DNA from: Gaiellaceae bacterium
GTDB taxonomy: Bacteria; Actinomycetota; Thermoleophilia; Gaiellales; Gaiellaceae
Assembly (NCBI GenBank): GCA_035645095.1
Contig: DASQNG010000017.1
Coordinates: 1-46,510 of the forward strand
DNA length: 46,510 bases
Direction of reading: 5' to 3'
Shown: one piece after another, positions 4,873 through 46,510 of the stretch
Layout of the letters: every line of letters begins with the position of its first letter
Position numbering within the stretch: position 1 is the first letter of the stretch
The notes under the pieces: model-generated
Seen by the model: only the letters and a program-made list of their open reading frames with translations
Database searches by the model: none
Told to the model about the DNA's origin: nothing
Translations under genes and position numbers: made by a program

Positions 4873-4937
4873 CGGCAGCGGCCGTTTCGCGCGGACGCCG
4901 TAGACTCGCCCGCACGGACGTCAGCGTCTTCGTCGAG

Positions 4938-12783: not shown

Positions 12784-14078
12784 GCGAGGCGGGGGGCGGC
12801 CCGGAGGGATCCGGGAAAGCAGAGAACCCGCGCACCGGGGGCGACTACGCCCCGAGCGTCGCCGCGCGGCTCGCGCTCTGGCAGCGCGCCGGCGGGCTCG
12901 CGGTCCCGCTCCTGACGACGGTAGTCGCCTTCCTGATCGGCGGCATCGTCGTCATCATCACGACGGGCAAGAACCCGCTCACGACGTACAAAGCGATCTT
13001 CGAGGGTGCCGGGCTGAACTGGTTCCTCGAGATCGGCAGCCACTCGGTCGGTCTCCCGTTCACCGACGCGAAGGTCTGGTTCCCGTGGGACACCGCTTCG
13101 CTCGCCGGGTTGAACCTGCAGCAGACGTTGCTGATCTGGATCCCGCTCGTCCTGACCGGCCTCGCAGTCGCCTTCGCCTTCCGCTGCGGCATGTTCAACA
13201 TCGGTGGCCAGGGCCAGTACCTCGTGGGCGCCGTCATGGCCGTCTGGATCGGCTCCGAGCTGCCGAACCTTCCGGGCGTGCTGCACATCCTGCTCGCGAT
13301 CGTCGCCGGCACCCTCGTCGGCGCTGCCTGGGCGGGCATCGCCGGGTTCCTGAAGGCGACGGTGGGCGCACACGAAGTGATCTCGACGATCATGCTCAAC
13401 TGGATCGCGGTCTGGGTCGGCGTCTTCCTCTTCGGGCTCGGCGGCCCGCTCCAGAACGACGCGCAGGAGTCGGTACCCGTGTCGAACGACGTCGTCGACG
13501 CGGCCAAGCTGAAGGTCTTCTGGGGTGAACCCCTGCTGCAGGGGCTCCACATCGGGATCCTCGTCTCCCTCGCCTCGCTGCTCGTCTACTGGATCACGCT
13601 CAACCGGACGACGCTCGGCTACGAGGTGCGGGCCGTGGGCTACAACCCGGAGGCCGCCCGCTACGGAGGCATCTCGGTCGCCCGCAACTACTTCCTGGCG
13701 ATGGCGATCTCGGGCGCCTTCGCCGGCCTCGCGGGCGCGCTCGACATCCTCGGCTGGCAGTACCGGCTGAACACGAACGACATCCTCGTCTCGACGATCG
13801 GCTTCACCGGAATCGCGGTCGCCCTGCTCGGCCGGAACACGGCCGTCGGCGTCGGCCTCGCGGGGCTCCTGTTCGCGTCGCTCGTCACCGGCACCTCCAC
13901 CCGGAACCTCGACCCCGAGATCTTCCGGCCCGAGCTCGCCTCGAACCTGACGACGATCATCCAGGGCCTCGTGGTCCTGTTCGTCGGTGCCGACGTCCTG
14001 ATCCTGTACCTCCTCAACCTGCGCAAGCGGCGCCGGCGGGCCGCCGTCGCGCTGCCCGCAGCGGGACCGGATGCCTGA
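12780..14078 (+). CDS. ABC transporter permease (BMP/nucleoside uptake system)
   Basis: This is the last 432 codons of the artefactual ORF 9909..14078. GTG 12780 overlaps the ATPase stop (GTGA). It is a multi-TM protein with a FNIGGQGQ motif typical of this permease family. Confidence 0.88.
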   Translation: MSEAGGGPEGSGKAENPRTGGDYAPSVAARLALWQRAGGLAVPLLTTVVAFLIGGIVVIITTGKNPLTTYKAIFEGAGLNWFLEIGSHSVGLPFTDAKVWFPWDTASLAGLNLQQTLLIWIPLVLTGLAVAFAFRCGMFNIGGQGQYLVGAVMAVWIGSELPNLPGVLHILLAIVAGTLVGAAWAGIAGFLKATVGAHEVISTIMLNWIAVWVGVFLFGLGGPLQNDAQESVPVSNDVVDAAKLKVFWGEPLLQGLHIGILVSLASLLVYWITLNRTTLGYEVRAVGYNPEAARYGGISVARNYFLAMAISGAFAGLAGALDILGWQYRLNTNDILVSTIGFTGIAVALLGRNTAVGVGLAGLLFASLVTGTSTRNLDPEIFRPELASNLTTIIQGLVVLFVGADVLILYLLNLRKRRRRAAVALPAAGPDA

Positions 14079-15264
14079 GCGCCTGCTCGCCCGGCTGCCG
14101 CACGGTGCGCGGGCCTACGCCTGGGCGGGGATCCTCGTCGGTCTCGTCGCGTTCTGGGTCGCGCTGCCGCCGCTCAAGGTGCGGACGCCGCTCCTCCCGC
14201 TCCTGCTCGGACTCGTCGCGATCGGGCTCGGTACGTGGGCGCTGCGTGGCGGCGTACGCCGGCTCGGCTGGGGGGCGATCGTGTCCGGCGTCGCCGGCAT
14301 CGGCCTCGGCTATCTCGCGACCCGCTCCAGCGTTGCGAACCTCGACCAGGTCGTCGTGTGGTCGGCGCTCTTCGCCGCGATGCTGCGCTACGCGACGCCG
14401 CTCGCGTTCGCGGCGATGGGCGGCATCTTCTCCGAGCGGAGCGGGGTCGTGAACATCGGCCTCGAGGGGATGATGCTGTCGGGCGCGTTCTTCGGCATCC
14501 TCGCGGCCGACAAGCTCGGGGCCTGGTGGCTCGGGTTACTCTGCGCCGCGCTCGCCGGCGGGACGTTCGCGCTGGTGCACGCGTTCTTCGCGATCCATCT
14601 CCGGGCCGACCAGATCGTCGGCGGCTTCGCGATCAACTTCCTCGCACTCGGCATCACCGGCTACCTCTTCCTCGACATCTACGGTGGCTCCGGGACGCCG
14701 CCGAACATCGACCGGATCCCGGACGTGCACCTCGGCTTCCTGAAGGACTGGGCATTCGTCGGGCCGATCCTCGGGCAGTTGAACCTGATGATCTGGCTCG
14801 CCGCCGGGACGATCGTGCTGGCGTGGCTCGTCCTCTTCAAGACGCCGATCGGGCTGCGGATCCGGTCCGTCGGCGAGCATCCGCGCGCGGCCGAGACCGT
14901 GGGCATCTCCGTGTACGCGACGCGGTACGCCGCCGTCACGCTCTCCGGCGTCCTCGCCGCCCTCGGCGGCGCCTACCTCTCGATCGGCTTCGTCAACTCG
15001 TTCAACCAGAACATGACGGCCGGACGCGGGTTCATCGCGCTCGCAGCGGTCATCTTCGGCAGCTGGAGGCCGTTCGGCGCCGCGGCGGCCGCGCTCCTGT
15101 TCGGCTTCTCGAGCGCGCTCGCGCAGCGCCTGCCAGCCTACTCGGAGTCGGCAGCCGTGCTGTTCCAGGCACTCCCGTACGTCCTCACCCTGATCGCGGT
15201 CGCGGGCGTCATCGGCCGCTCGATCCCGCCCGCAGCGGTTGGTCGCCCCTACCGCAAGCAGTAG
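14071..15264 (+). CDS. ABC transporter permease (second subunit)
   Basis: 397-aa multi-TM ORF with an NIGLEGMML motif. The ATG overlaps the preceding permease by 8 nt. Confidence 0.9.
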   Translation: MPERLLARLPHGARAYAWAGILVGLVAFWVALPPLKVRTPLLPLLLGLVAIGLGTWALRGGVRRLGWGAIVSGVAGIGLGYLATRSSVANLDQVVVWSALFAAMLRYATPLAFAAMGGIFSERSGVVNIGLEGMMLSGAFFGILAADKLGAWWLGLLCAALAGGTFALVHAFFAIHLRADQIVGGFAINFLALGITGYLFLDIYGGSGTPPNIDRIPDVHLGFLKDWAFVGPILGQLNLMIWLAAGTIVLAWLVLFKTPIGLRIRSVGEHPRAAETVGISVYATRYAAVTLSGVLAALGGAYLSIGFVNSFNQNMTAGRGFIALAAVIFGSWRPFGAAAAALLFGFSSALAQRLPAYSESAAVLFQALPYVLTLIAVAGVIGRSIPPAAVGRPYRKQ

Positions 15265-24045: not shown

Positions 24046-24910
24046 CGTCCTCGCTCTCTTCGGCCCGACCGCGTCCGGCAAGACGGGCGTCGCGGCCGCC
24101 GTGACCCGGCGACTCCCTGCCGAGCTCGTCTCTGCCGACGCGATGCAGGTCTACGAAGGGCTGCCGATCCTGACGAACCAGGGACCGGGGCGCCTCGTGG
24201 CGATCTGGCCACTCGACCACGAGGCGTCCGTCGGCGAGTACCAGCGGCTGGCGCACGCCGCAATCGACGAGATCCTCGCTGCCGGGCGGCTGTCGATCGT
24301 CGTGGGCGGCACCGGCCTCTACCTGCGCGCGGCGCTCGCCGAGCTCGCCCTGCCGCCCGCGCCGCAGCCGGGCACCCGCGCACGCTGGGAGAGGTTCTAC
24401 GACAAGCACGGAGCGGCTGATGCCCATGCGGAGCTCGCGCGCCGCGACGAGCGCGCCGCCGCGGCCGTTCATGCGAACGACCGCCGGCGGGTCGTGCGGG
24501 CGCTCGAGCTGACGGACGCCGGCAGCTCGCTACGTCCGCTGGTGGACCGGCTGTGGCAGGAGTCGACGCGGCATCCGTCGCTCGTCGTCGGTCTCGACGT
24601 GCCGCCGGCGGTGCTGGAGCGACGCATCCGCGCGCGCACGGAGGCCATGTTCGAGCGCGGCGTCGAGGACGAGGTTCGCCGCGTCCTCGAGCGGCCGCTC
24701 TCGACGACGGCGGCCAAGGTGATCGGGCTGCACGAGGTGGCCGAGCTGCCGCGCGAGGAGGCGGTCGACCGGATCGTGGTCCGCACCCGCCGCTACGCCG
24801 CCTACCAGCGGAAGTGGATGCGCCGCATCCCCGGCATCGTCATGCTGGACGGCGATCGCCCAGCGGACGAGGTGGCGGATGCGATTCTCGAAGTGGCACG
24901 CGCTCGGTAA
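24011..24910 (+). CDS. miaA: tRNA dimethylallyltransferase
   Basis: P-loop FGPTASGKTG followed by DAMQVYEGLPILTNQ. The TTG start at 24011 overlaps the SDR gene by 35 nt. Confidence 0.9.
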   Translation: MAGRPSSPIPPSVLALFGPTASGKTGVAAAVTRRLPAELVSADAMQVYEGLPILTNQGPGRLVAIWPLDHEASVGEYQRLAHAAIDEILAAGRLSIVVGGTGLYLRAALAELALPPAPQPGTRARWERFYDKHGAADAHAELARRDERAAAAVHANDRRRVVRALELTDAGSSLRPLVDRLWQESTRHPSLVVGLDVPPAVLERRIRARTEAMFERGVEDEVRRVLERPLSTTAAKVIGLHEVAELPREEAVDRIVVRTRRYAAYQRKWMRRIPGIVMLDGDRPADEVADAILEVARAR

Positions 24911-27643: not shown

Positions 27644-28717
27644 CTACCTGCCGAGGACGAAGTCCCAGAGGGCGCCGTAGGCATGCTCGAGCGCCGCGAT
27701 CTCGACCCGTTCGTCGCGGCGGTGCGCGTAGCGGGTGGCGCCGGGGCCGAAGTTGACGGCGTCGATCCCGCGCGCGGTGAAGTCGGCGACGTTCGTCCAC
27801 GCCTGCTTCGGCTCGAGCGGGAGGTCGTGTGTGGCGCGGAGCCGCTGCACGAGCGGCGAGTCGACGGCGACGCGGCCGGCGGGGGAGTCGCCGGCGGGCT
27901 CGTACGTCGCGCCGTACGGCAGCAGGCTGCGCAGATGCGCCTCCGCACTCGCGGAGCTCCGGTCGGGCGCGTACCGGAAGTTGACGTGGGCCGTTGCCCG
28001 GTCGGGGATCACGTTGTCGGCGATGCCGCCGTGGAACTGGGTCACCGAGACCACCTCCGTGAACGTCAGCCCGCCCACCTCGACCGGCCGCGGCGGCACC
28101 GATGCGAACGGGCGGAGCCCGTCGAGCGCCTTCATGATCGCGTTCTCCGCCGTCCACGGGCGCGCCGAGTGGCCGCTGACCCCGTGGAAGACGACGCGCG
28201 CGTTCAGGTTGCCGAGGCACCCCGCCTGGATCGTCCCGTCGGTCGGCTCGAGCAGGATCGCGAGCGCTGCGTCGTGCACGAGACGCGAGTGGTCGAAGAG
28301 GCGCGGCAGCGGGCTGAACTCGGCCGGAAGCTCCTCCTTGCCGAAGAGGAGGAGCGCCAGGTCGACCTCCGGCTCGATGCCCTGCGCGTCGAGGTCGCGC
28401 ACGAGCTCGAGGAGGACGGCGAGCCCGCCCTTCATGTCGCTGGCGCCGAGCCCCACGACCGCGCCGTCCACCATCCGGCCCGGAAGGTTCTCCTGCGCGG
28501 GGACGGTGTCCCAGTGTCCCGCCAGCACGACGAGGTCGCGACCCTCGCGCCGCGGCCGCGCGAAGACGAACGCGTCGTCGGCCGCGTACTCGGCCGTGTA
28601 GGCGGCCGGGACGAGCGACGTCACATGTGCGGCGATCTCGGCCTCGCTCCGGCTCTCGGACGGGATGTCGACGAGCTCGAGCGTCCGCGCTGCGAGCCGC
28701 TCGGCGAGCGTCTGCAT
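27644..28717 (-). CDS. dapE: Succinyl-diaminopimelate desuccinylase (M20 peptidase)
   Basis: M20 motifs (GHWDTVP, GASDMKGG, HGVSGHSARP). This is the C-terminal 357 codons of ORF 27644..29911, starting at ATG 28717. Confidence 0.85.
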   Translation of the reverse strand: MQTLAERLAARTLELVDIPSESRSEAEIAAHVTSLVPAAYTAEYAADDAFVFARPRREGRDLVVLAGHWDTVPAQENLPGRMVDGAVVGLGASDMKGGLAVLLELVRDLDAQGIEPEVDLALLLFGKEELPAEFSPLPRLFDHSRLVHDAALAILLEPTDGTIQAGCLGNLNARVVFHGVSGHSARPWTAENAIMKALDGLRPFASVPPRPVEVGGLTFTEVVSVTQFHGGIADNVIPDRATAHVNFRYAPDRSSASAEAHLRSLLPYGATYEPAGDSPAGRVAVDSPLVQRLRATHDLPLEPKQAWTNVADFTARGIDAVNFGPGATRYAHRRDERVEIAALEHAYGALWDFVLGR

Positions 28718-28724
28718 GGGTGGA

Positions 28725-28737
28725 AGCGTGGCACAAT
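28725..28737. promoter_or_regulatory. Back-to-back -10-like hexamers for divergent dapE and hflX
   Basis: CACGCT on the minus strand (28730-28725) lies 7 nt from the dapE ATG. CACAAT on the plus strand (28732-28737) lies 7 nt from the hflX GTG. The whole spacer is only 27 bp. Confidence 0.3.
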
Positions 28738-28744
28738 CCGGGGC

Positions 28745-30085
28745 GTGACGACGCGCCAATCCGAATCCCCGGCGACGGGCGTGGAGCTCGAGCGGGGATT
28801 CGTGGTCGCGGTTCTGCCGAGGGGCGCCGACGCGGACGGCGAGCTCGCGGAGCTGCACGAGCTCGCGCTGACGGCCGGCGTCGACCCGGTCGGCCGCCTC
28901 GTGCAGCAGCGGACGCAGCCGGATGCGCGGACGTACGTGGGAAAGGGGAAGCTCGAGGAGCTGAAGGCCGCGTACGCCGGGGCCGAGGCCGAGGTGCTGC
29001 TCGTCGACGACGAGCTCGACCCGGTGCAGCAGCGCGCGCTCGAGAACGGTGTCGACGCCCGCGTCGTCGACCGGACGCAGCTGATCCTCGACATCTTCGC
29101 GCAGCACGCGACGAGCGCCGAGGGCAAGCTCCAGGTCGAGCTGGCGCAGCTCGAGTACAACCTGCCGCGGATGCGAGGCATGTGGAAGCACCTCGAGCGC
29201 CTCGGCGGCGGCCGGGGCGTCGTCGGTGCCGGCGTCGGCACGAGAGGCCCCGGCGAGTCGCAGCTCGAGACCGATCGCCGCCTTGCGAACCGGCGGATCA
29301 CGCTGCTGCGGCGGCGCCTGCGGGAGCTCGACCGCCAGCGCGCGCTCCGGCGGAAGGAGCGGAAGCGGACGCAGATGCCGACCGTCGCTCTCGCCGGCTA
29401 CACGAACGTCGGCAAGTCGACGCTCCTGAACGCCCTCACCGGCGCGGACGTGTCCGTGCGGAACCGGCTCTTCGAGACGGTCGACCCGACGACGCGCAGC
29501 TTCGAGCACGAGGGGCGAACGTATCTCGTCACGGACACCGTCGGGTTCATCCGGCGGCTCCCGACGCAGCTCGTCGAGGGGTTCGCGTCGACGCTCGAGG
29601 AGACGCTCGTGGCCGATTTCGTCCTCCACGTCGCGGACGCCTCGGCCGAGGACGAGCAGCTCGAGGAGATGGTCGCAGCGGTCGACGCCGTGCTCGGCGA
29701 CATCCACGCCCACGAGCTTCCGGTCGAGCTCGTCCTGAACAAGATCGACCGTGTCGACCCGCTCCGGCGGCGGCGCCTCGCGAACCGCTTCCCAGGGGCG
29801 CTCCAGCTCTCCGCTGCGCGCGGCGAGGGTCTCGAGGAGTTGCGGGGTCGGATCGCGGAGCGGTTCTCCGACCGGTACGAGGAGGTGCGGCTGCTCCTCC
29901 CGTACGACCACGGCGGCACCCTCGCCGAGCTCTACTCGCTCGGCGCCCCGATCGACGAGCGCGCAGATCTCGAGGACGGCGTGCTCGTGCGTGCGCGCCT
30001 GCCGCGCCGGGAGATTCCCCGCTACGCGCAGTACCTCGTGGCCGATGCAGAGCCTCGCGCGGTGCGTGGGGCCGACGCCACGTGA
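28745..30085 (+). CDS. hflX: GTPase HflX
   Basis: HflX N-terminal domain (…QLILDIFAQHATSAEGKLQVELAQLEY…) plus G-domain motifs GYTNVGKST, DTVGF and NKID. GTG 28745 is in frame within ORF 26609..30085. Confidence 0.93.
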   Translation: MTTRQSESPATGVELERGFVVAVLPRGADADGELAELHELALTAGVDPVGRLVQQRTQPDARTYVGKGKLEELKAAYAGAEAEVLLVDDELDPVQQRALENGVDARVVDRTQLILDIFAQHATSAEGKLQVELAQLEYNLPRMRGMWKHLERLGGGRGVVGAGVGTRGPGESQLETDRRLANRRITLLRRRLRELDRQRALRRKERKRTQMPTVALAGYTNVGKSTLLNALTGADVSVRNRLFETVDPTTRSFEHEGRTYLVTDTVGFIRRLPTQLVEGFASTLEETLVADFVLHVADASAEDEQLEEMVAAVDAVLGDIHAHELPVELVLNKIDRVDPLRRRRLANRFPGALQLSAARGEGLEELRGRIAERFSDRYEEVRLLLPYDHGGTLAELYSLGAPIDERADLEDGVLVRARLPRREIPRYAQYLVADAEPRAVRGADAT

Positions 30086-32437: not shown

Positions 32438-33148
32438 CACCTCTCGGGCCTGGGCCTCCAGCGTGTCCGGCAGCGGCTCGAGCACCGGCGGCTCGCCGCG
32501 CGTCGCGTGCGCGAGCGCCTGCGCAAGCAGCCAGTCGGCGAGCCACGGGTTCCGCGGCAGGAGCGGGCCGTGCAGGTACGTGCCGACGGCGCGGTGTACC
32601 CGGCAGCCCTCGTAGCCGGAGGCACCGTCGTTCCCGAAGCCGGCCTCGACGCGCCCGAGCGGCACCGCCCCCGGGTCGAGCCGCGTGCGGCCGGCGTGGT
32701 TCTCGAACCCGGCCAGCGGCCGCCGCTCCCCTTCGACGTCGCACTCGAGCAGCACGTCGCCGATCATCCGCCGCTCGCCCGCCACGGTCTCGTGCGGGAA
32801 GAGCCCGATCCCGGGCATGTCGCTGCCGTGGAAGCCGCGGTAGCCGCGCCCGAGAAGCTGGTAGCCGCCGCAGACGGCGAGGATCGCGGCCCCTCCGGCG
32901 GCAGCCTCCCGCACCGCCTCGCCCTTCGCGACCAGGTCCGGCGCGACGAGCGCCTGCTCGCGGTCCTGGCCGCCGCCGATGTAGAGGAGGTCGTGCGCCC
33001 CCGCCCGCAGCGTGTGGCCCACGGAGACGCCCTCGACGTCGAGCTCGTGGCCGCGCAGGGCGGCTCGGCGCGCGAGGACCGCGATGTTGCCGCGGTCGGC
33101 GTAGATGTTCAGGTAGTCGGGATAGAGGTGGCCGACGCGGATCCTCAT
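32399..33148 (-). CDS. gatD: Lipid II isoglutaminyl synthase, glutaminase subunit GatD (CobB/CobQ-like GATase)
   Basis: Contains YPDYLNIYADRGNI, ILAVCGGYQLLG (catalytic Cys) and ENHAGRT motifs. The ATG overlaps the murT stop (ATGA). This is the C-terminal 249 codons of ORF 32399..33889. Confidence 0.85.
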   Translation of the reverse strand: MRIRVGHLYPDYLNIYADRGNIAVLARRAALRGHELDVEGVSVGHTLRAGAHDLLYIGGGQDREQALVAPDLVAKGEAVREAAAGGAAILAVCGGYQLLGRGYRGFHGSDMPGIGLFPHETVAGERRMIGDVLLECDVEGERRPLAGFENHAGRTRLDPGAVPLGRVEAGFGNDGASGYEGCRVHRAVGTYLHGPLLPRNPWLADWLLAQALAHATRGEPPVLEPLPDTLEAQAREVSAQRARDRGGRY

Positions 33149-34512
33149 GACGCCTCCCAGTACGGCCGCACGAGCCCCTGATCGCTCACGATGCGGCGGA
33201 GCGCGAGCATCGCGGTGTAGGTCGGCAGCACCGCGGCCTCGCCGCCGGCGTCCGTTGCCTCCAGCGCACGGCGGAGGGCGCGGGCGAGGTCGGGCTCGAC
33301 CTCGAGCTGCTGCTCGTCGAGACCGCCGTAGGTGCAACGCAGCGCGAGCTCGGCCGCGCGGCTGCCGGTTGCGACGACCATCCCGACGCGCTCCAGCAGC
33401 GGCTCGAAATCGACGTCCCAGATCCACGACACGTCCTGCCCATCGGCGATCGCGTCGTTCAGGGCGACGAGGAGCACCGGCGGCACGCCGCCGTCGACGA
33501 GCGTCCGCACGACCTCGTTCGCCCCTGTGGGGTTCTTGATCAGGAGCACGAGGAGGGACTTGTCGCCGGCCGCGATGCGCTCGAAGCGCCCGAACGCCGC
33601 GCCGAAGCGCGCGAGCCCCTCCCGGATCTCGTCGAGCGAGGCGCCGAGCACCTGCGCGAGTGCCGCAGCGCCGACCGCGTTGTAGACGTTGTAGAGGCCG
33701 GGGAGCGCGAGCCGGACGCGGGTCGAGCCTGCTGGGGTGACGAGGTCGAACGACGCTCCCTCGAGCCCGTCCAGCTCGATCGCGCGCGCGAGCACCTCCC
33801 GTTCGGGTGGGCCGTGCCCACAGCTGGCGCAACGGTAGTCGCCGAGATGGCCGACGTAGGCGGCGGTGAACTCGTACGGCCGGCCGCACCGGACGCAGTA
33901 GCGCGAGTCGGCAGCGTGTTGGAGGGACGCTCGCGCGTGCCGCGCGTCGTCGAGGCCGAACGCGACGACGTCGCTGCGGCCCCGGGCGAGGTCACCCACC
34001 TGAGGGTCGTCCCCGTTCGCGACGACGACCGTCGAGGCGGGGAGGGCGGCGACCATCTCGCGCCAACGCGCGGCGAGAAGCTCCAGCTCGCCGTAGCGGT
34101 CGAGCTGGTCGCGGAAGAGGTTCCCGAGCAGGAGCACGCGCGGTCGCACGCGCCGAGCCGCCTCGGGGAGCGCCGCCTCGTCGACCTCGAGCAGCCCGAG
34201 GTCCGCCTCGCGCACCGCGAGCAGCGTCGACGCGATGCCTGAAAGAAGGTTCGCGCCGGAGCGGTTCCACGCGAGCCGCCTGCCGCGGCCGAGGATCTCC
34301 GCGACCATCGCCGTCGTCGTCGTCTTCCCGTTCGTCGCCGAGACGAGTGCGGCGCCGTGGGGGAGCCGTGCTGCAAGTGCGTCGATCGCGCCGGGGTCGA
34401 GCTTCCAAAGCAGCTTCCCCGGGATCGTGGTACCGCCTCCTGCGCCGGCGAGGCGCGAGAGGCGCGCTGCGGCGCGTGCGGCGAAGGTCTCGACGGCGAG
34501 CCGGGCGCTCAT
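33145..34512 (-). CDS. murT: Lipid II isoglutaminyl synthase, Mur-ligase-like subunit MurT
   Basis: Mur ligase P-loop SATNGKTTTT, a four-Cys ribbon (CVRC...CASC), and a DUF1727-like C-terminus with DVSWIWDVDFE. 455 aa starting at ATG 34512. Confidence 0.88.
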   Translation of the reverse strand: MSARLAVETFAARAAARLSRLAGAGGGTTIPGKLLWKLDPGAIDALAARLPHGAALVSATNGKTTTTAMVAEILGRGRRLAWNRSGANLLSGIASTLLAVREADLGLLEVDEAALPEAARRVRPRVLLLGNLFRDQLDRYGELELLAARWREMVAALPASTVVVANGDDPQVGDLARGRSDVVAFGLDDARHARASLQHAADSRYCVRCGRPYEFTAAYVGHLGDYRCASCGHGPPEREVLARAIELDGLEGASFDLVTPAGSTRVRLALPGLYNVYNAVGAAALAQVLGASLDEIREGLARFGAAFGRFERIAAGDKSLLVLLIKNPTGANEVVRTLVDGGVPPVLLVALNDAIADGQDVSWIWDVDFEPLLERVGMVVATGSRAAELALRCTYGGLDEQQLEVEPDLARALRRALEATDAGGEAAVLPTYTAMLALRRIVSDQGLVRPYWEAS

Positions 34513-36202: not shown

Positions 36203-36313
36203 GGTTCGGCTACATCTTTCGCCGGCGACGGCCGGGTACCTCTCCTCCCACAGAGTAGTCGTTTCTCCTCAAACCTCAAGTCTCAGACGGGGGATGCCGA
36301 TGAAAGCTGCAGG

Positions 36314-37264
36314 ATGGAGCTTCAGAACGCCGAGCCGCTCCTCGATGCCGAGCCTCGGCTCGCCCTCGTGCCGCCGCTCGCGGAGCCGGAGCTGCCCGAA
36401 GCCGGGGAGGAGGCCAGCCCCCGCCGGCCGCTCGCGCCGGAGCCGACGCAGGATGCTCTCAAGCTGTACGTCCGGCAGATCGGTGACGGGCGCCTCCTGA
36501 CGGCAGCGGAGGAGCGGGAGCTCGCGCGGCGCAAGGATCTCGGGGACGAGGCCGCGAAGCAACGGCTGATCGAGGCGAACCTGCGGCTCGTGATGTCGAT
36601 CACGCGGCACTACGCCAAGGCGAGCGTGCCACTGCTCGACCTGATCCAGGAGGGGAACCTCGGCCTGATCCGCGCCGTCGAGAAGTTCGACTACCAACTC
36701 GGGTTCAAGCTGTCGACGTACGCGACGTGGTGGATCCGGCAGGCGATCTCACGCGCCCTCGCCGAACAGGGCCGGACGATCAGGCTCCCCGTGCACGTCG
36801 CCGACCAGGTGCGACGCGTCACGCGCGCGCGCCGGCTGCTGGCGCAGAAACTGAACCGCCACCCGACGCTGGAGGAGGTCGCAGCCGAGAGTGGCTTCCC
36901 GCCGCACCGTGTGCGCGAGCTGCTCGAGTTGATCGAGGACCCGATCAGCCTCGAGACGCCTGTCGGAGATGGCGAGAGCAGGTACGGCGACCTGATCCGG
37001 GACACGATGGCGGCCGAGCCGGAGGCCGAGACTGCCGACCGGTTGCGCTCCACCGAGCTGACAGCGGCGCTTCGCGGTCTCGACCCGCGGATGCGGCACG
37101 TGTTGGCGCACCGCTTCGGCCTCGGCGGCGTCCAGCCCCAGACGCTCGAGGAGATCGGCACCGACCTCGGCATCACCCGCGAGCGGGTGCGCCAGCTCGA
37201 GACACGCGCGCTCCGGGAGCTTCGGACGGCCGCGCCGGGGCTCGAGCTCTACCTGCAGACGTAG
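36314..37264 (+). CDS. RNA polymerase sigma-70 family factor (group 2-like)
   Basis: Has regions 1.2-4.2: [50 protein letters not shown] and [12 protein letters not shown]. It lacks a region 1.1. Confidence 0.9.
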
Positions 37265-39310: not shown

Positions 39311-40249
39311 CTAGAAGCCCGCGGACCGCGCGCCGGTGGCGATCAGGAGGAGCACGGCGCCGGCGGCTGCGAGGCGGTACCAGACGAAGAGCGAGTAGTC
39401 GTGGCGCCGCACGTACCCGAGCAGCCCCGTGATGGCGAGGAAGCCGCTCCCGGTCGCCGCGAGCGTGCCGACGACGAACGGCCCTACCACGTCGGACGGC
39501 GGATCGCCGAGTACGACGTCCGTCATGCCCTTGTAGAGCACGGCGCCGAGCGTGGTGGGCACGAGAAGCAGGAACGAGAAGCGCGCCGCGCTGTCTCGGT
39601 CGAGCCCGAGGAAGCGCGCTGCGGAGATCGTGATCCCGGAACGCGACACGCCGGGCATGAGCGCGAGGCTCTGCGCGAGCCCCACTCCGAACGCGGTCCC
39701 CAGGCCGAGGTCGCTCATCTCGCGGCTCTGGGGACGGCGGTCGGCCCACAGCAACACGAGCGCGAAGAGCGCGAGCAGGATCGCGACTTGCCACGGCTGC
39801 CCGAGGTTCTCCGCGATGTAGTCGTTGCCGACGGCGCCGATCGCGGCAGCCGGGATCGTCGCGACGAACACGAACCACGCCACCCGCTCGTCGGGCGTCG
39901 CGATCCGGCGCGTTCCGAGCGTCCGCACCCAGGCCCGGAAGAGCGTGACGATCTCGCGACGGAAGTAGCCGACGACGGCGACGAGCGTGCCCAGGTGGAT
40001 CCCGACGTCGAAGGTGTGGTTGAACGCCGCGTTGTCGCGGAGGTAGTCCCATTCGCCGAGCCACGGGACGAGCGCGAGGTGCCCCGAGGACGAGACCGGG
40101 AGCAGCTCCGTCGCGCCCTGGACGATCCCGAGGACGAGCGCCTGCCAGTTGGGGAGCTTCCCGGGGTCGTCCCCAACGCCGAACAGCGTGAGGACCAGGG
40201 CCGCAACGAGGGTGGCCGTGGCGACGGCATAGACGACGGCACGGCCCAT
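39311..40249 (-). CDS. uppP: Undecaprenyl-diphosphate phosphatase
   Basis: BacA/UppP motifs [17 protein letters not shown] and PGVSRSG, with 8 TM helices. TAGGAT lies 7 nt upstream of the ATG. Confidence 0.93.
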
Positions 40250-40251
40250 CC

Positions 40252-40266
40252 GCGCGATCCTACGCG
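40252..40266 (-). promoter_or_regulatory. -10 region of uppP (leaderless geometry), copy 1 of an identical 15-mer
   Basis: The minus-strand sequence CGCGTAGGATCGCGC. Its TAGGAT lies 7 nt upstream of the uppP ATG. Confidence 0.35.
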
Positions 40267-40515
40267 GCTGCGCCAGGGGCTCGGGAGGGAGAAAAAGTTC
40301 AGGGAGCCGGTGGCGCTTTCGTCCACCGAGCCCGCTGACTTTCCGCTTCCGCGTACGGCCCTCGTGCTCGGCTTCGACCTAGTCGCGCTCCGTGCTCCCT
40401 GCAAGCGGCACCATAGGGCCGACGCGCTCCCGCGGCAACCCGCGCGGCAGCGGAAGACGCGGTATTTGCGAGAACTTTCGTCGGACTGTGGTGGGGGTCG
40501 GCCGGTCGGCTCGGT

Positions 40516-40530
40516 CGCGTAGGATCGCGC
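40516..40530 (+). promoter_or_regulatory. -10 region of the small membrane ORF (leaderless geometry), copy 2 of the identical 15-mer
   Basis: The plus-strand sequence CGCGTAGGATCGCGC. Its TAGGAT lies 6 nt upstream of GTG 40532. Confidence 0.35.
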
Positions 40531-40531
40531 C

Positions 40532-40732
40532 GTGCACCTGCGCATGCCGAGCATCGACCACGGCGTCCAGTCCTTCTTCTGGGCGGTCGTCTTCTTCCTG
40601 ATCCTGTGGCTCGGGATGCTCGCGATCGGCGTCTCGGGCGCGACTGCGTTCATCCTCTCCCTCGTCGCAGCCGGCGGGATCTTCCTCTTCGTGCGGACGC
40701 ACGGCGAGGACCCGCCGGGCCCGCGCGCCTAG
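40532..40732 (+). CDS. Hypothetical small membrane protein (2 TM)
   Basis: 66-aa ORF with two hydrophobic helices and GC3 near 100%. TAGGAT lies 6 nt upstream of the GTG. Confidence 0.55.
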   Translation: MHLRMPSIDHGVQSFFWAVVFFLILWLGMLAIGVSGATAFILSLVAAGGIFLFVRTHGEDPPGPRA

Positions 40733-40966
40733 CGTCGGCCGCCCTCGTGTGCGGCCGCGGGCGCGCCCCGCAGCCGGCACACGAGCGTGGGCCCGAGGCT
40801 ACCTCGAGGCGCTCACGCACCGGCGGGCGCCGGGGATACCGCCGAGCGCCGCGTAGTGCTCGAGCAGGCGCTCGTCCGCGCGCCGCTTCGACGGGTCGGC
40901 GAGCGCGGCGTCCATGGCGGCTCTATCGCCCGCCACGCTCGCGCCGCGAGACCTGGCGGGAGTGAA

Positions 40967-41653
40967 CTACCTCCGGTCGCGCCGCTCCGCGTCGGCCGCG
41001 ACCGGCCGTTGCGCGTCCGGATCGTCGCCGTGCACGACCTCCCCGGCGGGACGGGAGCGCTCCGCCCGCTCGTTCGAGGCACCGACCCGGTCGCCGGGTG
41101 CCCCGTGGCGCGCCGTCTCCGGGTCGTGCGCCACGGCCGTCGACTGCGCCTCCTGACGGCCGCGGAACCCGCGCCGCGTCGGTTGTCCGACCCGCCGCGC
41201 ACCGTCCGCCTCGTCGCGCTCGTCCACGACGACGTTACGCCGCGGCCCCGACGTGTCGAACGTGAAGCCGAACGTGAGGCCGATCCCGAACGCGACCGCC
41301 GCGAGGAACTCGCCGAGGCCGCTGACCGCGCCCATCACGCCCAGGTCGCGCGACCAGTTCGACGTGTTGAAGAAGTCCGCCGGCTGCCTGGCGAGCAGCA
41401 CCCAGCCGCCCACGAGGAGCACCGGGAGGAAACCGAGCAGGAGCACGCCGAGCGAGAGGCTCGGCCACCCCCACTTCGTCCAGCCGCCGAGCAGCTGCGA
41501 GAGCGCCATCGTCAGGCCGGCCGCCGCGAGGAGGCCGTACGTGAGCCAGTACTCGCCGGACGTGTCGGTACCGATCGTCGAAGCCAGCCAGATCAGGAAC
41601 CCGGCGATCCCCGCCCCGACCGCCGTCGAGAGCCCTCTCGTGATGCCGATCAT
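40967..41653 (-). CDS. Hypothetical integral membrane protein with charged, probably disordered C-terminal tail
   Basis: 228-aa ORF with 4 predicted TM helices (Trp/Gly-rich), then an ~85-aa Arg/Asp/Glu-rich tail. GGAGG lies 6 nt upstream of the ATG. Confidence 0.65.
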   Translation of the reverse strand: MIGITRGLSTAVGAGIAGFLIWLASTIGTDTSGEYWLTYGLLAAAGLTMALSQLLGGWTKWGWPSLSLGVLLLGFLPVLLVGGWVLLARQPADFFNTSNWSRDLGVMGAVSGLGEFLAAVAFGIGLTFGFTFDTSGPRRNVVVDERDEADGARRVGQPTRRGFRGRQEAQSTAVAHDPETARHGAPGDRVGASNERAERSRPAGEVVHGDDPDAQRPVAADAERRDRR

Positions 41654-41719
41654 CGTGAGCCTCCGTTCTCTTGACGCACCGCGTCCGTGATTCCCGGTAC
41701 GGATCGAACGGAACCGTCC

Positions 41720-42319
41720 CTAGTCCAGTTGCAGTCGCCGCTCGTCGAACCGCGCGGAGTAGAGCTCCGAGCGGAAGTCGTGGAGGGCGCGGAAGGTGTC
41801 GTCGGCGAAGACGTGGTCGACGACCCCGACCGACGCGTCGTTCCAGAACGGCAGGTCGACGTGGAGCTGCGTGACCAGGTTGACCGAGAGGCCGCGGCAG
41901 GCCGGGCAGCGGATCGCGAGGCCGTAGGCCTGCGCCCCGGGCGCCACCGCCACGAACGAGGACGGGAAGACGGGCCGGGGCCGTCCCTCGGGGTAGCAGT
42001 AGAAGCTCCACGGCCACTCCCCCGCGCCGACGCGTGTGGCGGCGGCGTCGCGCAGCTCCGCCCCCGTTTCGTCCAGCTTCGACGTCATCAGGTTCAGGAA
42101 GCGTCCGGCGTCGCCGGCGACCGGCGCCCAGTCGAGCTCGTCGTGCGAGACGAGGCCTTGGTGCGCGTCGCCGCAGTGGCAGTCGAAGAGAACTTCGTAG
42201 ACGGCCGGATGCGCCGCGCCGGGAAGCCGCTCCAGCCGCCGGAACGCCGAGAGTGTCACGCGCGCCGCCGCCCCGCGCGGGCACGAGAAGGTGTACCTGC
42301 CGGTCAGCGCGTCGTACAT
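41720..42319 (-). CDS. Hypothetical Cys/His-rich protein (putative zinc-binding, internally duplicated)
   Basis: 199-aa ORF with high GC3. Cys at residues 13, 47, 49, 108, 138 and 141, arranged as F-x-C-(P)-x-G ...30-34 aa... C-x(1-2)-C twice. I recognise no family. Confidence 0.65.
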   Translation of the reverse strand: MYDALTGRYTFSCPRGAAARVTLSAFRRLERLPGAAHPAVYEVLFDCHCGDAHQGLVSHDELDWAPVAGDAGRFLNLMTSKLDETGAELRDAAATRVGAGEWPWSFYCYPEGRPRPVFPSSFVAVAPGAQAYGLAIRCPACRGLSVNLVTQLHVDLPFWNDASVGVVDHVFADDTFRALHDFRSELYSARFDERRLQLD

Positions 42320-42377
42320 GTGGGAATCGTCAGCTGCGGCTCGGACGACATCGAAACGCGCTCCTCTGCAGGGGACT

Positions 42378-42914
42378 TCAGTAGCGGATGAGCGATTCGA
42401 CGGTGTAGTCGGCGAGCTTGTCGCGCCCGTTCAGGAACTCGAGCTCGATCACGAAGAGGAGGCCGACGACCTCCGCCCCGACCATCTCGACGAGGTCGGC
42501 CTTTGCCCGCGCCGTCCCGCCCGTGGCGAGCACGTCGTCATGCACGATCACGCGCGCCCCGGGCTTGATCGCGTCCGCATGAACCTGGAGGCGGTCGGTC
42601 CCGTACTCGAGCTCGTACGTCGCCTCCACCGTCTCCCACGGCAGCTTCCCCGGCTTTCGGGCGGTCACGAAGCCGCAGCCGAGCTCGTAGGCGAGCGCGC
42701 CGCCGAAGATGAAGCCGCGCGCCTCCGCGCCGAGGATGACGTCCGGCCGGAGCGGCCGGGCGAGCTCGACCAGCCGGTCGACGGCCGCACGGAGATAGTC
42801 GGGGTCGCCGACGAGCGGCATGATGTCCTTGAAGACGATGCCGGGCTTCGGGAAGTCCGGCACGTCGCGCACACGGTCGCGGAGGTCGAGCGTCGCGATC
42901 GACGGGTCGTTCAT
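42378..42914 (-). CDS. apt: Adenine phosphoribosyltransferase
   Basis: Contains DFPKPGIVFKDI and the PRPP motif VIVHDDVLATGGTA. 178 aa from ATG 42914, within ORF 42378..43355. Confidence 0.93.
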   Translation of the reverse strand: MNDPSIATLDLRDRVRDVPDFPKPGIVFKDIMPLVGDPDYLRAAVDRLVELARPLRPDVILGAEARGFIFGGALAYELGCGFVTARKPGKLPWETVEATYELEYGTDRLQVHADAIKPGARVIVHDDVLATGGTARAKADLVEMVGAEVVGLLFVIELEFLNGRDKLADYTVESLIRY

Positions 42915-42924
42915 GCGCGGCAAC

Positions 42925-43632
42925 CTACCGCTCGGCGAGTCCGCCGAGCTCGCGCCAGAAGAGAAGCCGTGAGAGGTCCTGCGATGCCTCGGCGAGCGCC
43001 TGCAGGTCCTCGAGCCCCGCCTTGCGGCGTTCGGGGTTCCGCGAGCGCAGCGCCGGCGCCACGAGCTGCTCGAGCAGCGCCGCCTCTCGCCCGGCCGAGT
43101 TCCGGAACGTCCGCAGATGCCGCGCGTCGATCCCGTAGCGCGCGAGCCGGCCGCAGGCCGCGGCGATCTCCGCGTCGGTGTCGCGATAGAGCCGCTCTCC
43201 CGCCTCGACTCGCGGTACGAGCAGCCCGAACTCCTCGAGCGCACGTACGAGCTCCGGCTCGATGCCGGCGCGTTCGCAGAGCTCGGCGAGCTCGAGCTCG
43301 CCCTCCGGCTCGCCGAGCGTGGAGGGTCGCCGGCGCTTCCGCTCCGCCGCCGCACCGCGCGCGAGCTCCTGCCTGATCACGCGCAGCGGCAGGAACTCGT
43401 CCCGCTGCAGACGCAGGATCGTCTCCAGCCGGTCGACGTCCTCCTGGCTGAAGAGCCGGTAGCCGCCGCGCGTTCGCTTCGGCGTCACGAGTCCCTGGTC
43501 CTCGAGGTACCGGATCTTCGAGATCGAGATGTCGGGGAACGCCTCGCGCAGCTGCGCGCAGACGGCGCCGATCGTGTGCAGCCGGCCCTCCGGTCGCTCG
43601 GCCGACCGCCGCTCGGTCGCGGTCGAGCTCAT
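42925..43632 (-). CDS. MerR-family transcriptional regulator (FtsR/Rv1828-like two-domain type)
   Basis: MerR wHTH (IGAVCAQL...ISISKIRYLEDQGLVTPKRTRGGYRLFSQEDVDRL) plus a second helical domain. It is immediately downstream of an FHA gene, as in the actinobacterial garA/odhI-ftsR arrangement. Confidence 0.85.
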   Translation of the reverse strand: MSSTATERRSAERPEGRLHTIGAVCAQLREAFPDISISKIRYLEDQGLVTPKRTRGGYRLFSQEDVDRLETILRLQRDEFLPLRVIRQELARGAAAERKRRRPSTLGEPEGELELAELCERAGIEPELVRALEEFGLLVPRVEAGERLYRDTDAEIAAACGRLARYGIDARHLRTFRNSAGREAALLEQLVAPALRSRNPERRKAGLEDLQALAEASQDLSRLLFWRELGGLAER

Positions 43633-44096
43633 CGGCGCTGGAGGAACGTCAGCCGGTACTTGCCGATCTGGACCTCGTCGTCGTCCTCGAGCTCCGCGGA
43701 CTCGATCCTGCTGCGGTTGACGAAGGTCCCGTTCAGGCTGCCGAGGTCGGTGATCGTGAAGCGGTCGCCGCTGCTCGTCAGCTCGGCGTGCCGGCGGGAG
43801 ACCGTCACGTCGTCGAGGAAGACGTCGCAGTCGGGCGACCGCCCGATCAGTGTCCGCTCGCCGGACGGGAAGAAGCTCTCACCGGCGCGCCCCCCGCCGG
43901 AGCGCACGACGAGCGCGGGGCCCTGCGCCGCAGGATCGGCGAGCGCGGCAGCCGGGTCCTCCGCGAGCTCCTCCGCACTGAAGGTGATCGTCTGTTCGGT
44001 CGGGTCCTCCGTGCTGAGGCGCGTCCCGCACTTCGAGCAGAAGTTCGCCGCCTCGGGGTTCTGGAAGCCGCACTCCTGGCAGTAGACGTGGCTCAT
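43629..44096 (-). CDS. FHA-domain protein with N-terminal zinc ribbon (GarA/OdhI-like)
   Basis: Zinc ribbon CQECG...CSKCG, a linker, then an FHA core (IGRSPDCDVFLDDVTVSRRHAEL...DLGSLNGTFVN). Its stop overlaps the MerR start, and its start overlaps the upstream ORF stop. Confidence 0.9.
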   Translation of the reverse strand: MSHVYCQECGFQNPEAANFCSKCGTRLSTEDPTEQTITFSAEELAEDPAAALADPAAQGPALVVRSGGGRAGESFFPSGERTLIGRSPDCDVFLDDVTVSRRHAELTSSGDRFTITDLGSLNGTFVNRSRIESAELEDDDEVQIGKYRLTFLQRR

Positions 44097-44350
44097 CTGG
44101 ACGGCTCCTCGTCGGGAGCGCCCGTCGTCGGCAGGTCGCGCGACGAGAGGATCTCGGTCAGCCGTTCGACGTCGACCTCCCCCACGCCCCTACCCTTGAG
44201 CCGCGCCGTCCGCTCGGCGCGGAGGATGTCGATGCGCCCCTGCAGCAGCCGCCGGCTGTAGGAGAGCTCGTTCTCCTCGGCCTCGAGGCGCTCGATCAGC
44301 TCCTTCAGCTCCTCGTTGCTGAGCGAGGCGAGGTCGGGCAGCGGTTCCAC
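44093..44350 (-). CDS. Small coiled-coil protein with a single RsiG/AmfC-type c-di-GMP-binding motif (putative anti-sigma-like c-di-GMP sensor)
   Basis: This is the last 85 codons of ORF 44093..45973. The GTG start has GGAGGA 5 nt upstream. The sequence ...LEAEENELSYSRRLLQGRIDILRAE... contains E26-x3-S30-x2-R33-x3-Q37-x3-D41. The stop overlaps the FHA start (ATGA). The functional call is tentative. Confidence 0.5.
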   Translation of the reverse strand: MEPLPDLASLSNEELKELIERLEAEENELSYSRRLLQGRIDILRAERTARLKGRGVGEVDVERLTEILSSRDLPTTGAPDEEPSR

Positions 44351-44421
44351 GTGCGTCCTCCAGTCGGCCGGTCGTCGGGGCGTCGACTCAGTAAAGCAGC
44401 CGCACCGCCGAGGGGTCAACC

Positions 44422-46510
44422 TCAGCTTGAGGCTTTTACGGGAGTTCGCGCCGGGACCCCGTCTCCCTGCATCACCTCCTCGACGAGCTCGCGGATCTCC
44501 GCCTCGAGCTCCTGGGTCGCCTCGGCCGTCCCGCCCTCGGCGTAGAGGTGCAGCAGCGGCTCGTCGGGGTCGGGCAGCACCTGCGTCCAGCCGCGGTCGC
44601 CGAGGATCTTGATCCCGTCGAGCAGGTCGAGGTCGCGGCCGGCGAGACGCTCGTTCAGGACGCGCATGACGAGACCCTTCTTTCCCCACGGGCACGCGAG
44701 CTGCCGGTGGACGAGCGTCGGGGAGGGCAGCTCGGCGACGAGCTCCGAGAGCGGGCGCTGCTGCGGTGCGAGCAGCTCGAGCAGCTTCGCGAGGCTCGCG
44801 ACCGCGTCGTAGGCCGGCAGGAACTGCGGGAAGACGTACCCGCCGCCGACGGAGCCGGCGAAGATGACGCCGTCCCCCGCCGCCACGCGCGTCAGCTCCG
44901 AGAGCGAATGCGGCGTCCTGACCACCTCGAGCCGGTCGTCGGCGAGGACGTCGACCTGGCTCGTGACGGTCACGGGGAACGCGACCTTCCCGCGGACGCC
45001 GCTCTCGCCGATCAGCCGCAGGAAGAGGAGGAGCGTCTGCTCGACCGGCACCTCCCGGCCCTGGTCGTCGACGAGGTACAGGCGCTCCGCCGACGCGTCG
45101 AAGACGGCCCCGAGGTCGGCGCCGACGGCGGTGACGAGCTTCTTTGTCTGACCGATCGCCTGCGCGAGCGAACCCCGTTCGCCGCCCTCGGTGAAGAAGC
45201 CGTGCGCGGAGAGCGCCTCCACCCCGAGCGGCCCGACGATGAGCGGTAGCACGAACGACGCCGCCGACCAGCCGTAGTCGACGACGATGCGGAACCGGCG
45301 CGCGCGGACCGCGTCGACCTGAAGCGACTGGACGAGGTCGTGCGCGTAGCTCTCCCGCACGCGCGCCGGGTACGTGACGGAGCCGACGCCGTCGGCGGCG
45401 ACGCGCCGGAACTCCTGCCGCGTGAAGTTCTTCTCGATCTCCTTCTGGAACGCTTGGGATGCGAGGATCCCCGGCGACTCGTAGAAGCGGATGAAGATCG
45501 CCTCCGGGTCGACCTGGCTGACGCCGACGTGGATGCCGGCGTCGAAGGCCTGCGTCTTCAGCACGTGCCTGCTGACGGCGGGCGGCGAGACGCGCAGGTC
45601 GGCGACGTCGACGCCGGTCGCGCTCAGGCCGGCCATGACCGCGCGCTTGATCATGCGGCACGCGGGCGCGGCGTCGCGGCTGGCGACGACGCGGGCGCCG
45701 CGCTTGAGAACCGTCCCGAGCGCCACCGCCAGCCGTACTGCCGTCTCCGGCGGCACGTCGACGTTCACGAGCCCGCTGACGCCGTCGTCGCCGAAGAGGC
45801 GGGCGGACGCGCGCGACTCCCAGATCAGGTTCTCGTGCACCTGCGAGCCCGTCTCCACCTCCTTGTAGGGGTAGATCCGGACGTGCGGCATGATCGACGA
45901 CTCCGAGCCGATCGTGACCTCGTCCCCGACGGCCGCCCCCTCGTGAATCCTGACGTGGTCGCGGATGTCGCACGAGCGGCCGACGATCGCCCCCTCGATC
46001 AGGGAGCTGCGCCCGACGTGCGTCCCCGCGTCGACGACGCAGCGTGCCGTGCGCGCGCGCTCGCGCAGCGTGACGCCGTTCGAGAGGACGGTGTAGGGCC
46101 CTACCGAGGTGCCGCGCGCGATCCGGGAGTAGTTGCCGATGAACGACGGCCCCTCGATGGCCTCGACGTCGTCCACGTCCCCCCCCTCTCCGAGCCAGAC
46201 GTTCCCGCGCAGCCGCACGCCCTCGACGTTCAGGCGGACGCGTTCGTCGAGGGCGTCGAAATTCGCCTGCCGGTACTGGTCGAGGTTGCCGATGTCCTGC
46301 CAGTAGCCGTCCAGCACGTGGCCGTAGAGCGGGCGGCCCATCTCGAGCAGGAGCGGGAAGAGCTGCTTCGAGAAGTCGTACGGCCCGTCCGTCGGCATGT
46401 GCCGCAGCACTTCCGGCTCGAGCACGTAGATGCCGGTGTTGATCGTGTCCGAGAAGACCTGGCCCCAGGACGGCTTCTCGAGGAAGCGCTCGATCCGGCC
46501 CTCCTCGTCG
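44422..46510 (-). CDS. Bifunctional sugar-1-phosphate nucleotidyltransferase (GDP-mannose pyrophosphorylase-like, LbH) / phosphomannomutase-like protein, 5'-partial
   Basis: The reading frame stays open to the window edge (…FSDTINTGIYVLEPEV…). It has a left-handed beta-helix segment, then a PGM/PMM-like four-domain region (…GIHVGVS…, …GGGYVFPQF…). The N-terminus lies outside the window. Confidence 0.85.
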   Translation of the reverse strand, partial: DEEGRIERFLEKPSWGQVFSDTINTGIYVLEPEVLRHMPTDGPYDFSKQLFPLLLEMGRPLYGHVLDGYWQDIGNLDQYRQANFDALDERVRLNVEGVRLRGNVWLGEGGDVDDVEAIEGPSFIGNYSRIARGTSVGPYTVLSNGVTLRERARTARCVVDAGTHVGRSSLIEGAIVGRSCDIRDHVRIHEGAAVGDEVTIGSESSIMPHVRIYPYKEVETGSQVHENLIWESRASARLFGDDGVSGLVNVDVPPETAVRLAVALGTVLKRGARVVASRDAAPACRMIKRAVMAGLSATGVDVADLRVSPPAVSRHVLKTQAFDAGIHVGVSQVDPEAIFIRFYESPGILASQAFQKEIEKNFTRQEFRRVAADGVGSVTYPARVRESYAHDLVQSLQVDAVRARRFRIVVDYGWSAASFVLPLIVGPLGVEALSAHGFFTEGGERGSLAQAIGQTKKLVTAVGADLGAVFDASAERLYLVDDQGREVPVEQTLLLFLRLIGESGVRGKVAFPVTVTSQVDVLADDRLEVVRTPHSLSELTRVAAGDGVIFAGSVGGGYVFPQFLPAYDAVASLAKLLELLAPQQRPLSELVAELPSPTLVHRQLACPWGKKGLVMRVLNERLAGRDLDLLDGIKILGDRGWTQVLPDPDEPLLHLYAEGGTAEATQELEAEIRELVEEVMQGDGVPARTPVKASS

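Follow-up and report, generated by a model that had tools for sequence, protein, structure and literature searches.

The window analysed here, 46,510 nucleotides from a Gaiellaceae bacterium (GenBank assembly GCA_035645095.1, contig DASQNG010000017.1), carries an 85-codon open reading frame (ORF) that is a genuine gene for a single-motif protein of the RsiG family; by homology, the product would probably act as a homodimer that is loaded with cyclic di-GMP (c-di-GMP) and sequesters a WhiG2-type sigma factor. A sequence-only reading had proposed this identity on the strength of one c-di-GMP-binding signature, E-x3-S-x2-R-x3-Q-x3-D, and had guessed at a deep-actinobacterial origin. The guess was borne out by the lineage, which places the host in the family Gaiellaceae of the class Thermoleophilia, a deep-branching actinobacterium. 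Few soil actinobacteria are as abundant as Gaiellales, and few have been cultivated so little. The closest genomic loci belong to metagenome-assembled genomes (MAGs) of Gaiellaceae (Thermoleophilia), with RsiG identities of 73-78% and neighbouring proteins at about 80%.

The rsiG gene and its product

The gene and its signals were placed as follows.

44093..44350, minus strand: rsiG-like gene, single-motif RsiG family protein of 85 aa (translation, PF22802, PDB matches, orthologues, codon-position GC, dN/dS)
44356..44361, minus strand: Shine-Dalgarno-like GGAGGA, 5 nt upstream of the rsiG GTG
44228..44275, minus strand: predicted c-di-GMP-binding signature E26-x3-S30-x2-R33-x3-Q37-x3-D41, within helix 12-51 (position in translation, alignment, PDB alignment)

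The translation (VEPLPDLASLSNEELKELIERLEAEENELSYSRRLLQGRIDILRAERTARLKGRGVGEVDVERLTEILSSRDLPTTGAPDEEPSR; 85 codons, GTG start at 44350) matched the Pfam RsiG-like family PF22802 at profile positions 2-65 of 65, with 78 bits against a cut-off of 27 and an E value of 4.3e-22. Only the RsiGs of Streptomyces venezuelae and Rubrobacter radiotolerans gave significant matches in the PDB, the former being best (RsiG/AmfC, 6pfj_T, E 3.3e-11) and the latter following at E 3.4e-10 to about 4e-10 by phmmer (7lq2_B, 7lq3_B, 7lq4_D); both alignments span the motif helix. NCBIfam had no model for the product. Resemblance to the family, which the earlier reading had expected to reach beyond the 16-residue motif, thus covers the whole domain, and at the level of sequence the interpretation as RsiG is supported. 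The motif itself was exactly where it had been reported, in a single copy. A six-frame scan turned up a second exact match (EAPRSLVRQDRQPFVD) at 24149-24196 on the minus strand, in a non-coding shadow frame opposite miaA, and mononucleotide shuffling predicted 0.03-0.04 matches per window. Chance occurrence in this GC-rich window therefore exceeds the shuffle prediction, and the bare motif is weak evidence alone, so that the case rests on whole-domain profile similarity in Pfam and the PDB.

The family is large and its motif stable. A large protein collection held 1722 homologues, and an exhaustive search scored 874 clusters (50% identity) at E<=1e-3. PF22802 was present in all 120 of the close homologues listed, most of them named 'hypothetical protein', and each of the 120 has exactly one motif, in its Q form in 119. 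Every one of the 40 genomic orthologues from Thermoleophilia, which are 51-78% identical, likewise retains the motif: E, S, R and D never change, and the fourth position is Q or H, with Q in the clade of the window and H in most others. Alignment A1 shows no variation at E26, S30, R33, Q37, D41, R39 and R44, and hardly any at D6. The motif residues make base- and ribose-specific contacts to c-di-GMP in two crystal structures (PMC8325347), and we infer c-di-GMP binding by the window protein from the conservation of these contact residues.

Several features mark the ORF as a gene. Re-translation reproduced exactly the start codon, the ribosome-binding site, the length and the coordinates first given for it. 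Orthologous rsiG genes carry GAAAGG or GGAG at an equal distance from the start. The GC contents of its three codon positions (0.73/0.44/0.93) match those of genuine window genes, and comparison with five orthologues from Gaiellaceae gave a ratio of nonsynonymous to synonymous substitution rates (dN/dS) of about 0.4. As had been noticed, a mechanically called ORF of 626 aa (44093-45973) has the gene as its final part, in the same frame; this artefact overlaps, in another frame, the real upstream gene (667+ aa), which encodes a fused sugar-1-phosphate nucleotidyltransferase/phosphomannomutase (PMM). The accompanying prediction that a generic pipeline would call the ORF hypothetical or miss it held in its first half, homologues being mostly named 'hypothetical protein', but failed in its second: gene callers detect the gene, homologues already carry PF22802 publicly, and rsiG is not invisible to a domain-aware pipeline. 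An in-frame TTG 27 codons upstream of the GTG was rejected as the start; it falls inside a conserved box, and the extra residues are not conserved in orthologues.

Public collections also contain homologues with naming or fusion problems (P0005, P0144, P0145 and P0153). One close homologue is labelled 'ribosomal protein S1' by its source, a misannotation, and in several database entries a frameshift or run-on has fused rsiG to its PMM or FHA neighbours, akin to the 626-codon artefact of the window.

The helical character suggested for the protein was also seen in an AlphaFold2 model with a mean predicted local distance difference test (pLDDT) score of 80. The model has a 40-residue helix (residues 12-51, pLDDT >90), a linker (52-60), a short C-terminal helix (61-70) and a disordered tail, with no equivalent of alpha5 of S. 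venezuelae RsiG. The linker is glycine-rich (K52-G53-R54-G55-V56-G57) and is followed by EVDVERLTEILSS, predicted as helix 61-70. The modelled layout is that described for R. radiotolerans RsiG (RsiG-Rr), in which a Gly-rich linker and a Leu/Glu-rich C-terminal extension dock WhiG (PMC8325347). Foldseek of the AlphaFold2 monomer against the PDB was uninformative (best E 5.2), as expected for a simple helical monomer. Residue equivalences, taken from the PDB alignment with roles from PMC8325347, were as follows.

RsiG-Rr E59, S63, R66, Q70, D74 = window E26, S30, R33, Q37, D41: c-di-GMP motif
RsiG-Rr D39, R72, R77 = window D6, R39, R44: contacts to WhiG

With its 85 aa, one motif and basal actinobacterial host, the protein fits the single-motif class to which it had been assigned, a class published in 2021 for Rubrobacteria and Thermoleophilia by Schumacher et al. 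(PMC8325347). The five published members self-interact and co-purify with WhiG; RsiG-Rr, a Q form, binds c-di-GMP with a dissociation constant of 12 uM and Conexibacter woesei RsiG (RsiG-Cw), an H form, with one of 25 uM, and in the presence of the cognate WhiG the constants fall to about 1-2 uM (PMC8325347). Over a 45-residue core the window protein is about 58% identical to RsiG-Rr (RradSPS_1442; 7LQ2/7LQ3/7LQ4). The two share one motif on a long helix, a Gly-rich linker leading into a short Leu/Glu-rich C-terminal helix, and the equivalents of the WhiG contacts D39, R72 and R77. They differ at the N-terminus, where the window protein is missing about 20-30 residues, at the position of K60, where it has a non-conserved N27, and in their hosts, which are Gaiellales and Rubrobacterales, respectively. 

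The published Thermoleophilia RsiGs (C. woesei Cwoe_3492, Thermoleophilum album and Patulibacter medicamentivorans), compared here by description rather than by direct sequence alignment, share the class of the host. The fourth motif residue is H in RsiG-Cw but Q in the window protein and in the Gaiellaceae clade nearest to it. A Solirubrobacteraceae locus resembles the window in its short protein of about 85 aa and in the order rsiG-FHA-FtsR. S. venezuelae RsiG/AmfC (6PFJ/6PFV) has the motif and Pfam family in common with the window protein, which is about 51% identical to its alpha1 and more weakly similar to alpha5. It differs from the window protein in being monomeric, about 200 aa long and twin-motif, with a long connecting loop and C-terminal helices; neither FHA nor FtsR adjoins its gene, and it controls sporulation.

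Homology with the R. radiotolerans and C. woesei proteins suggests how the window protein would work. Two 85-aa chains would pair their helices (residues ~12-51) into an antiparallel coiled coil, with one E26/S30/R33/Q37/D41 motif per helix, and the two motifs would jointly bind c-di-GMP as a partly intercalated dimer. So loaded, the RsiG dimer would then bind and sequester a WhiG2-type sigma factor of the sigma-28 family, which is predicted to dock through the Gly-rich linker, the C-terminal helix, D6, R39 and R44. High c-di-GMP would accordingly keep the WhiG regulon off.

The rsiG-FHA-ftsR locus

Downstream of rsiG lie two further genes, and upstream lies a conserved repeat.

43629..44096, minus strand: zinc-ribbon + FHA protein (OdhI/GarA-like), 155 aa (Pfam FHA 3e-23, Zn_Ribbon_1 1e-7)
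42925..43632, minus strand: FtsR, MerR-family cell-division regulator, 235 aa (NF050798 equivalog, Pfam MerR_1)
44411..44435, minus strand: imperfect 25-nt inverted repeat AAGCCTCAAGCTGAGGTTGACCCCT, candidate FtsR operator and -35 region (conservation, likeness to FtsR box)

The order nucleotidyltransferase/PMM, rsiG, zinc-ribbon FHA protein, FtsR, apt was found in 40 of 40 Thermoleophilia loci, and on two metagenome contigs with independent gene calls. In the window the rsiG stop overlaps the FHA start (ATGA, 44093-44096, minus strand), as the FHA stop does that of FtsR (43629-43632, minus strand); in most orthologous loci the rsiG and FHA genes likewise overlap or abut (TTGA, TGATG), a few having a gap of 10-20 nt. 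This layout suggests translational coupling of the three genes and marks rsiG as the predicted first cistron of a conserved rsiG/zinc-ribbon FHA/FtsR operon. FtsR scored 215 bits against a cut-off of 150 for NCBIfam NF050798, and Rv1828_C was found on an orthologue. The adjacency of FtsR to an FHA gene (odhI/garA) is a conserved arrangement (PMC6683498), and the window keeps it, with the FtsR equivalog directly downstream of the FHA gene as in the odhI/garA-ftsR cluster. The FHA protein reached 124 bits with the NCBIfam OdhI model, below the cut-off of 200, and its N-terminus has a zinc ribbon (CxxC...CxxC) in place of the phospho-threonine segment of OdhI/GarA; because of these two features its regulation may differ from that of OdhI/GarA.

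Situated just ahead of rsiG, the 25-nt repeat overlaps the stop codon of the preceding gene and has no second copy in the window. All 40 Thermoleophilia loci share it with the window, although the intergenic sequence around it is variable. The FtsR box of Corynebacterium glutamicum (AACCCTAAAGTAAAGGTTGAGGGTA), experimentally defined in the ftsZ promoter (PMC6683498), is identical to it at 15 of 25 positions and has an equal 25-bp inverted-repeat layout and symmetry; the FtsR box of the Mycobacterium tuberculosis ftsZ promoter is identical at 14 of 25. The putative box suggests that FtsR autoregulates the rsiG-fha-ftsR operon. Given the box and the overlap of the rsiG stop with the FHA start, the dosage of the anti-sigma factor is probably tied to the FtsR circuit; in the mechanism proposed above, an FtsR-controlled promoter and tight coupling to FHA and FtsR would link anti-sigma supply to growth and division. 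A scan of 42300-44600 for consensus sigma-70 promoters and terminators found none, and a TTGACC-18-TTTACT pair upstream of rsiG is a promoter candidate only. No RNA family was detected by an Rfam scan of 40000-46510.

The locus extends to the Rubrobacter type. A search with an RsiG-Rr fragment, taken as query from the PDB alignment and run through a word-index pre-filter that is insensitive to short fragments, gave one match, an 874-nt Rubrobacter-like contig (L081). This contig, which is distinct from the R. radiotolerans genome, carries the PMM C-terminus, rsiG, an ATGA overlap (L081:806) and the start of a zinc-ribbon protein, and the RsiG it encodes shares 73% identity with the RsiG-Rr core. 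As this gene order matches that of the window, the window gene is a positional orthologue of the Rubrobacter type. The L081 RsiG (L081:495-809, plus strand) is publicly called from a TTG as a protein of 78 aa. Read from an ATG that lies in frame 26 codons before this TTG, it has 104 aa and begins, like RsiG-Rr, with a charged helix and a GSGG linker, and the public call is probably truncated. Within 10 kb of the twin-motif rsiG genes of Streptomyces there is neither an FHA nor an FtsR gene. The ancestral rsiG locus appears to be an FHA-ftsR operon with an FtsR-like operator.

Twin-motif variants were observed at the same locus. Two Thermoleophilia MAGs (L039:10001-10465 and L040:10001-10465, both plus strand) encode 154-aa RsiG-like proteins of two tandem repeats, each with E-x3-S-x2-R-x3-H-x3-D, upstream of the zinc-ribbon FHA, FtsR and apt genes. 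The repeats are 53% identical to one another, above the 33-40% of described twin-motif RsiGs, and repeat 1 shares 65% identity with the window protein. For Thermoleophilia, only single-motif forms appear in the published account. Many metagenomic twin-repeat representatives of 143-187 aa lie near the Thermoleophilia type (including P0127-P0129, P0132-P0137 and P0140).

The partner of RsiG and rival explanations

Two sigma factor genes and one promoter-like site bear on the question of partner.

36314..37264, plus strand: SigB-like (group-2) sigma gene (tblastn/sigma scans)
37995 to about 39060, minus strand: SigA-like sigma gene (tblastn/sigma scans)
36276..36303, plus strand: sigma-28/WhiG-type promoter-like site TCAA-N16-GCCGATGA, 10 nt upstream of the SigB-like ATG (36314)

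Several observations weigh against a WhiG-sequestering RsiG. No FliA/WhiG-type sigma gene was found in the 46.5-kb window, and no GGDEF, EAL or HD-GYP gene among the window ORFs that were scanned; both sigma genes of the window belong to group 1/2. The SigB-like factor, tried as an RsiG partner, was rejected, as it is without K57/G61/R62, the signature of c-di-GMP-contacting WhiG2 (PMC12871210). The window RsiG lacks the N-terminal helix and glycine linker with which RsiG-Rr clasps sigma-2 of WhiG; only five residues precede its LPDL motif, as in the Thermoleophilia type generally. Finally, the tight coupling of its gene to FHA and FtsR would suit another partner too, whether in place of WhiG or beside it. 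When S. venezuelae WhiG was used as a tblastn query, the window and 80 loci yielded group 1/2 sigma genes only. A database search with a WhiG-Rr fragment gave 5 matches, none assignable to Gaiellaceae, with a pre-filter too insensitive for short fragments.

Other evidence points to WhiG indirectly. The promoter-like site matches TAAA/GCCGATAA with <=2 mismatches and lies within 200 bp of a start codon, as in a published search for WhiG targets (PMC8325347). The -10 element GCCGATA was present in 26 of 26 loci holding the SigB-like gene, and T[CA]AA-N16-GCCGATA stood at the corresponding place in 22 of the 26, with a variable spacer sequence. Conservation of the site implies, as indirect evidence, that these organisms have a sigma-28-type holoenzyme. 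According to a published statement (PMC12871210), RsiG never occurs without WhiG, which likewise points to a WhiG in these organisms. The arrangement points to a sigma cascade from a WhiG-type to the SigB-like factor. With the site only 10 nt before the SigB-like ATG, a near-leaderless mRNA is implied.

The strongest rival accepts an RsiG-fold c-di-GMP receptor and holds that its main or additional partner in Gaiellaceae is the co-translated, OdhI-like FHA protein or FtsR, not WhiG. The adjacency of the three genes in all 40 Thermoleophilia loci speaks for it, together with the zinc-ribbon gene that starts after rsiG on the Rubrobacter-like contig, the 4-nt stop/start overlaps and the upstream FtsR-box-like element. 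The ligand or stimulus of FtsR is stated as not known (PMC6683498), and the missing WhiG-clasping helix and the want of a WhiG gene in the window would also suit this explanation. However, the RsiGs of C. woesei, T. album and P. medicamentivorans co-purify with their own WhiGs, and RsiG-Cw with WhiG-Cw binds c-di-GMP about 15-fold tighter (PMC8325347). The WhiG-contact equivalents D6, R39 and R44 are conserved, a WhiG-type promoter is conserved nearby, and adjacency alone is no proof of physical interaction; moreover, Streptomyces rsiG departed from the FHA-ftsR locus with its function retained. We regard this rival as unlikely and prefer WhiG sequestration. Were FHA or FtsR the partner, c-di-GMP would feed into the FtsR cell-division and metabolic circuit.

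Less probable still, the protein would be a coiled-coil relative of RsiG, degenerate or structural, in which c-di-GMP binding was lost and the motif kept for helix packing only. Such a relic would be compatible with the chance occurrence of the bare motif elsewhere in the window (24149-24196, minus strand), but the five motif residues are invariant, bar the tolerated Q/H exchange, down to 51% identity while surrounding helix positions vary, and they are the base and ribose contacts of both crystal structures. The notion that the ORF is no gene, having stayed open by chance 3' of the sugar-nucleotide enzyme gene, is fed by its frame-sharing with a long artefactual ORF and by the frequency of long spurious ORFs at 72% GC. 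It is already refuted by coding GC3, dN/dS, the Pfam match, independent gene calls, the conservation of start, Shine-Dalgarno sequence and length, and the existence of over 1700 homologues.

The window as a whole, with a GC content of 72%, is a housekeeping region containing dapA, rnj, ftsK, cinA, recA, recX, rny, miaB, miaA, dapF, uppP and apt besides the two group 1/2 sigma genes and the rsiG locus. Long ORFs with an unusually high GC content at the first codon position (0.81-0.94 over stop-to-stop frames) were noted at 32438-33181 and 33151-34242 on the plus strand and at 27644-29000, 3661-4920 and 12345-14114 on the minus strand. None of the five matched a Pfam or NCBIfam family, and a simple GC3 criterion gave no decision on the coding strand of these regions.

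Implications for c-di-GMP signalling in basal actinobacteria

The single-motif class is not new, having been reported in 2021 for Rubrobacteria and Thermoleophilia; Gaiellales lie outside the five published species. In the library of papers searched, we found nothing relevant on Gaiella or Gaiellales in connection with c-di-GMP or flagella, and nothing that ties RsiG to FHA, FtsR, GarA or OdhI. A bolder proposal, which we offer as speculation and rate slightly below a non-WhiG partner, is that in basal Actinomycetota rsiG is the FtsR-controlled first cistron of an ancient FHA-ftsR operon, that the loaded dimer acts on FHA or FtsR as well as on WhiG, and that twins of the kind seen in the two MAGs are snapshots of the intragenic duplication behind the Streptomyces-type RsiG. 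If this were true, c-di-GMP would be a direct input into the actinobacterial node that regulates cell division and 2-oxoglutarate.

The main value of the finding is one of annotation: a gene usually called 'hypothetical' would mark a c-di-GMP-controlled sigma/anti-sigma switch in Gaiellales, and the single-motif RsiG class widens from five cultured species to an order-wide and metagenome-wide family, with more than 1700 homologues in one search and 874 clusters in another. The putative ancestral locus, the twin variants and the WhiG-type promoter are potentially more useful than the gene itself; they bear on how the switch evolved and on what its targets may be in actinobacteria that do not sporulate.

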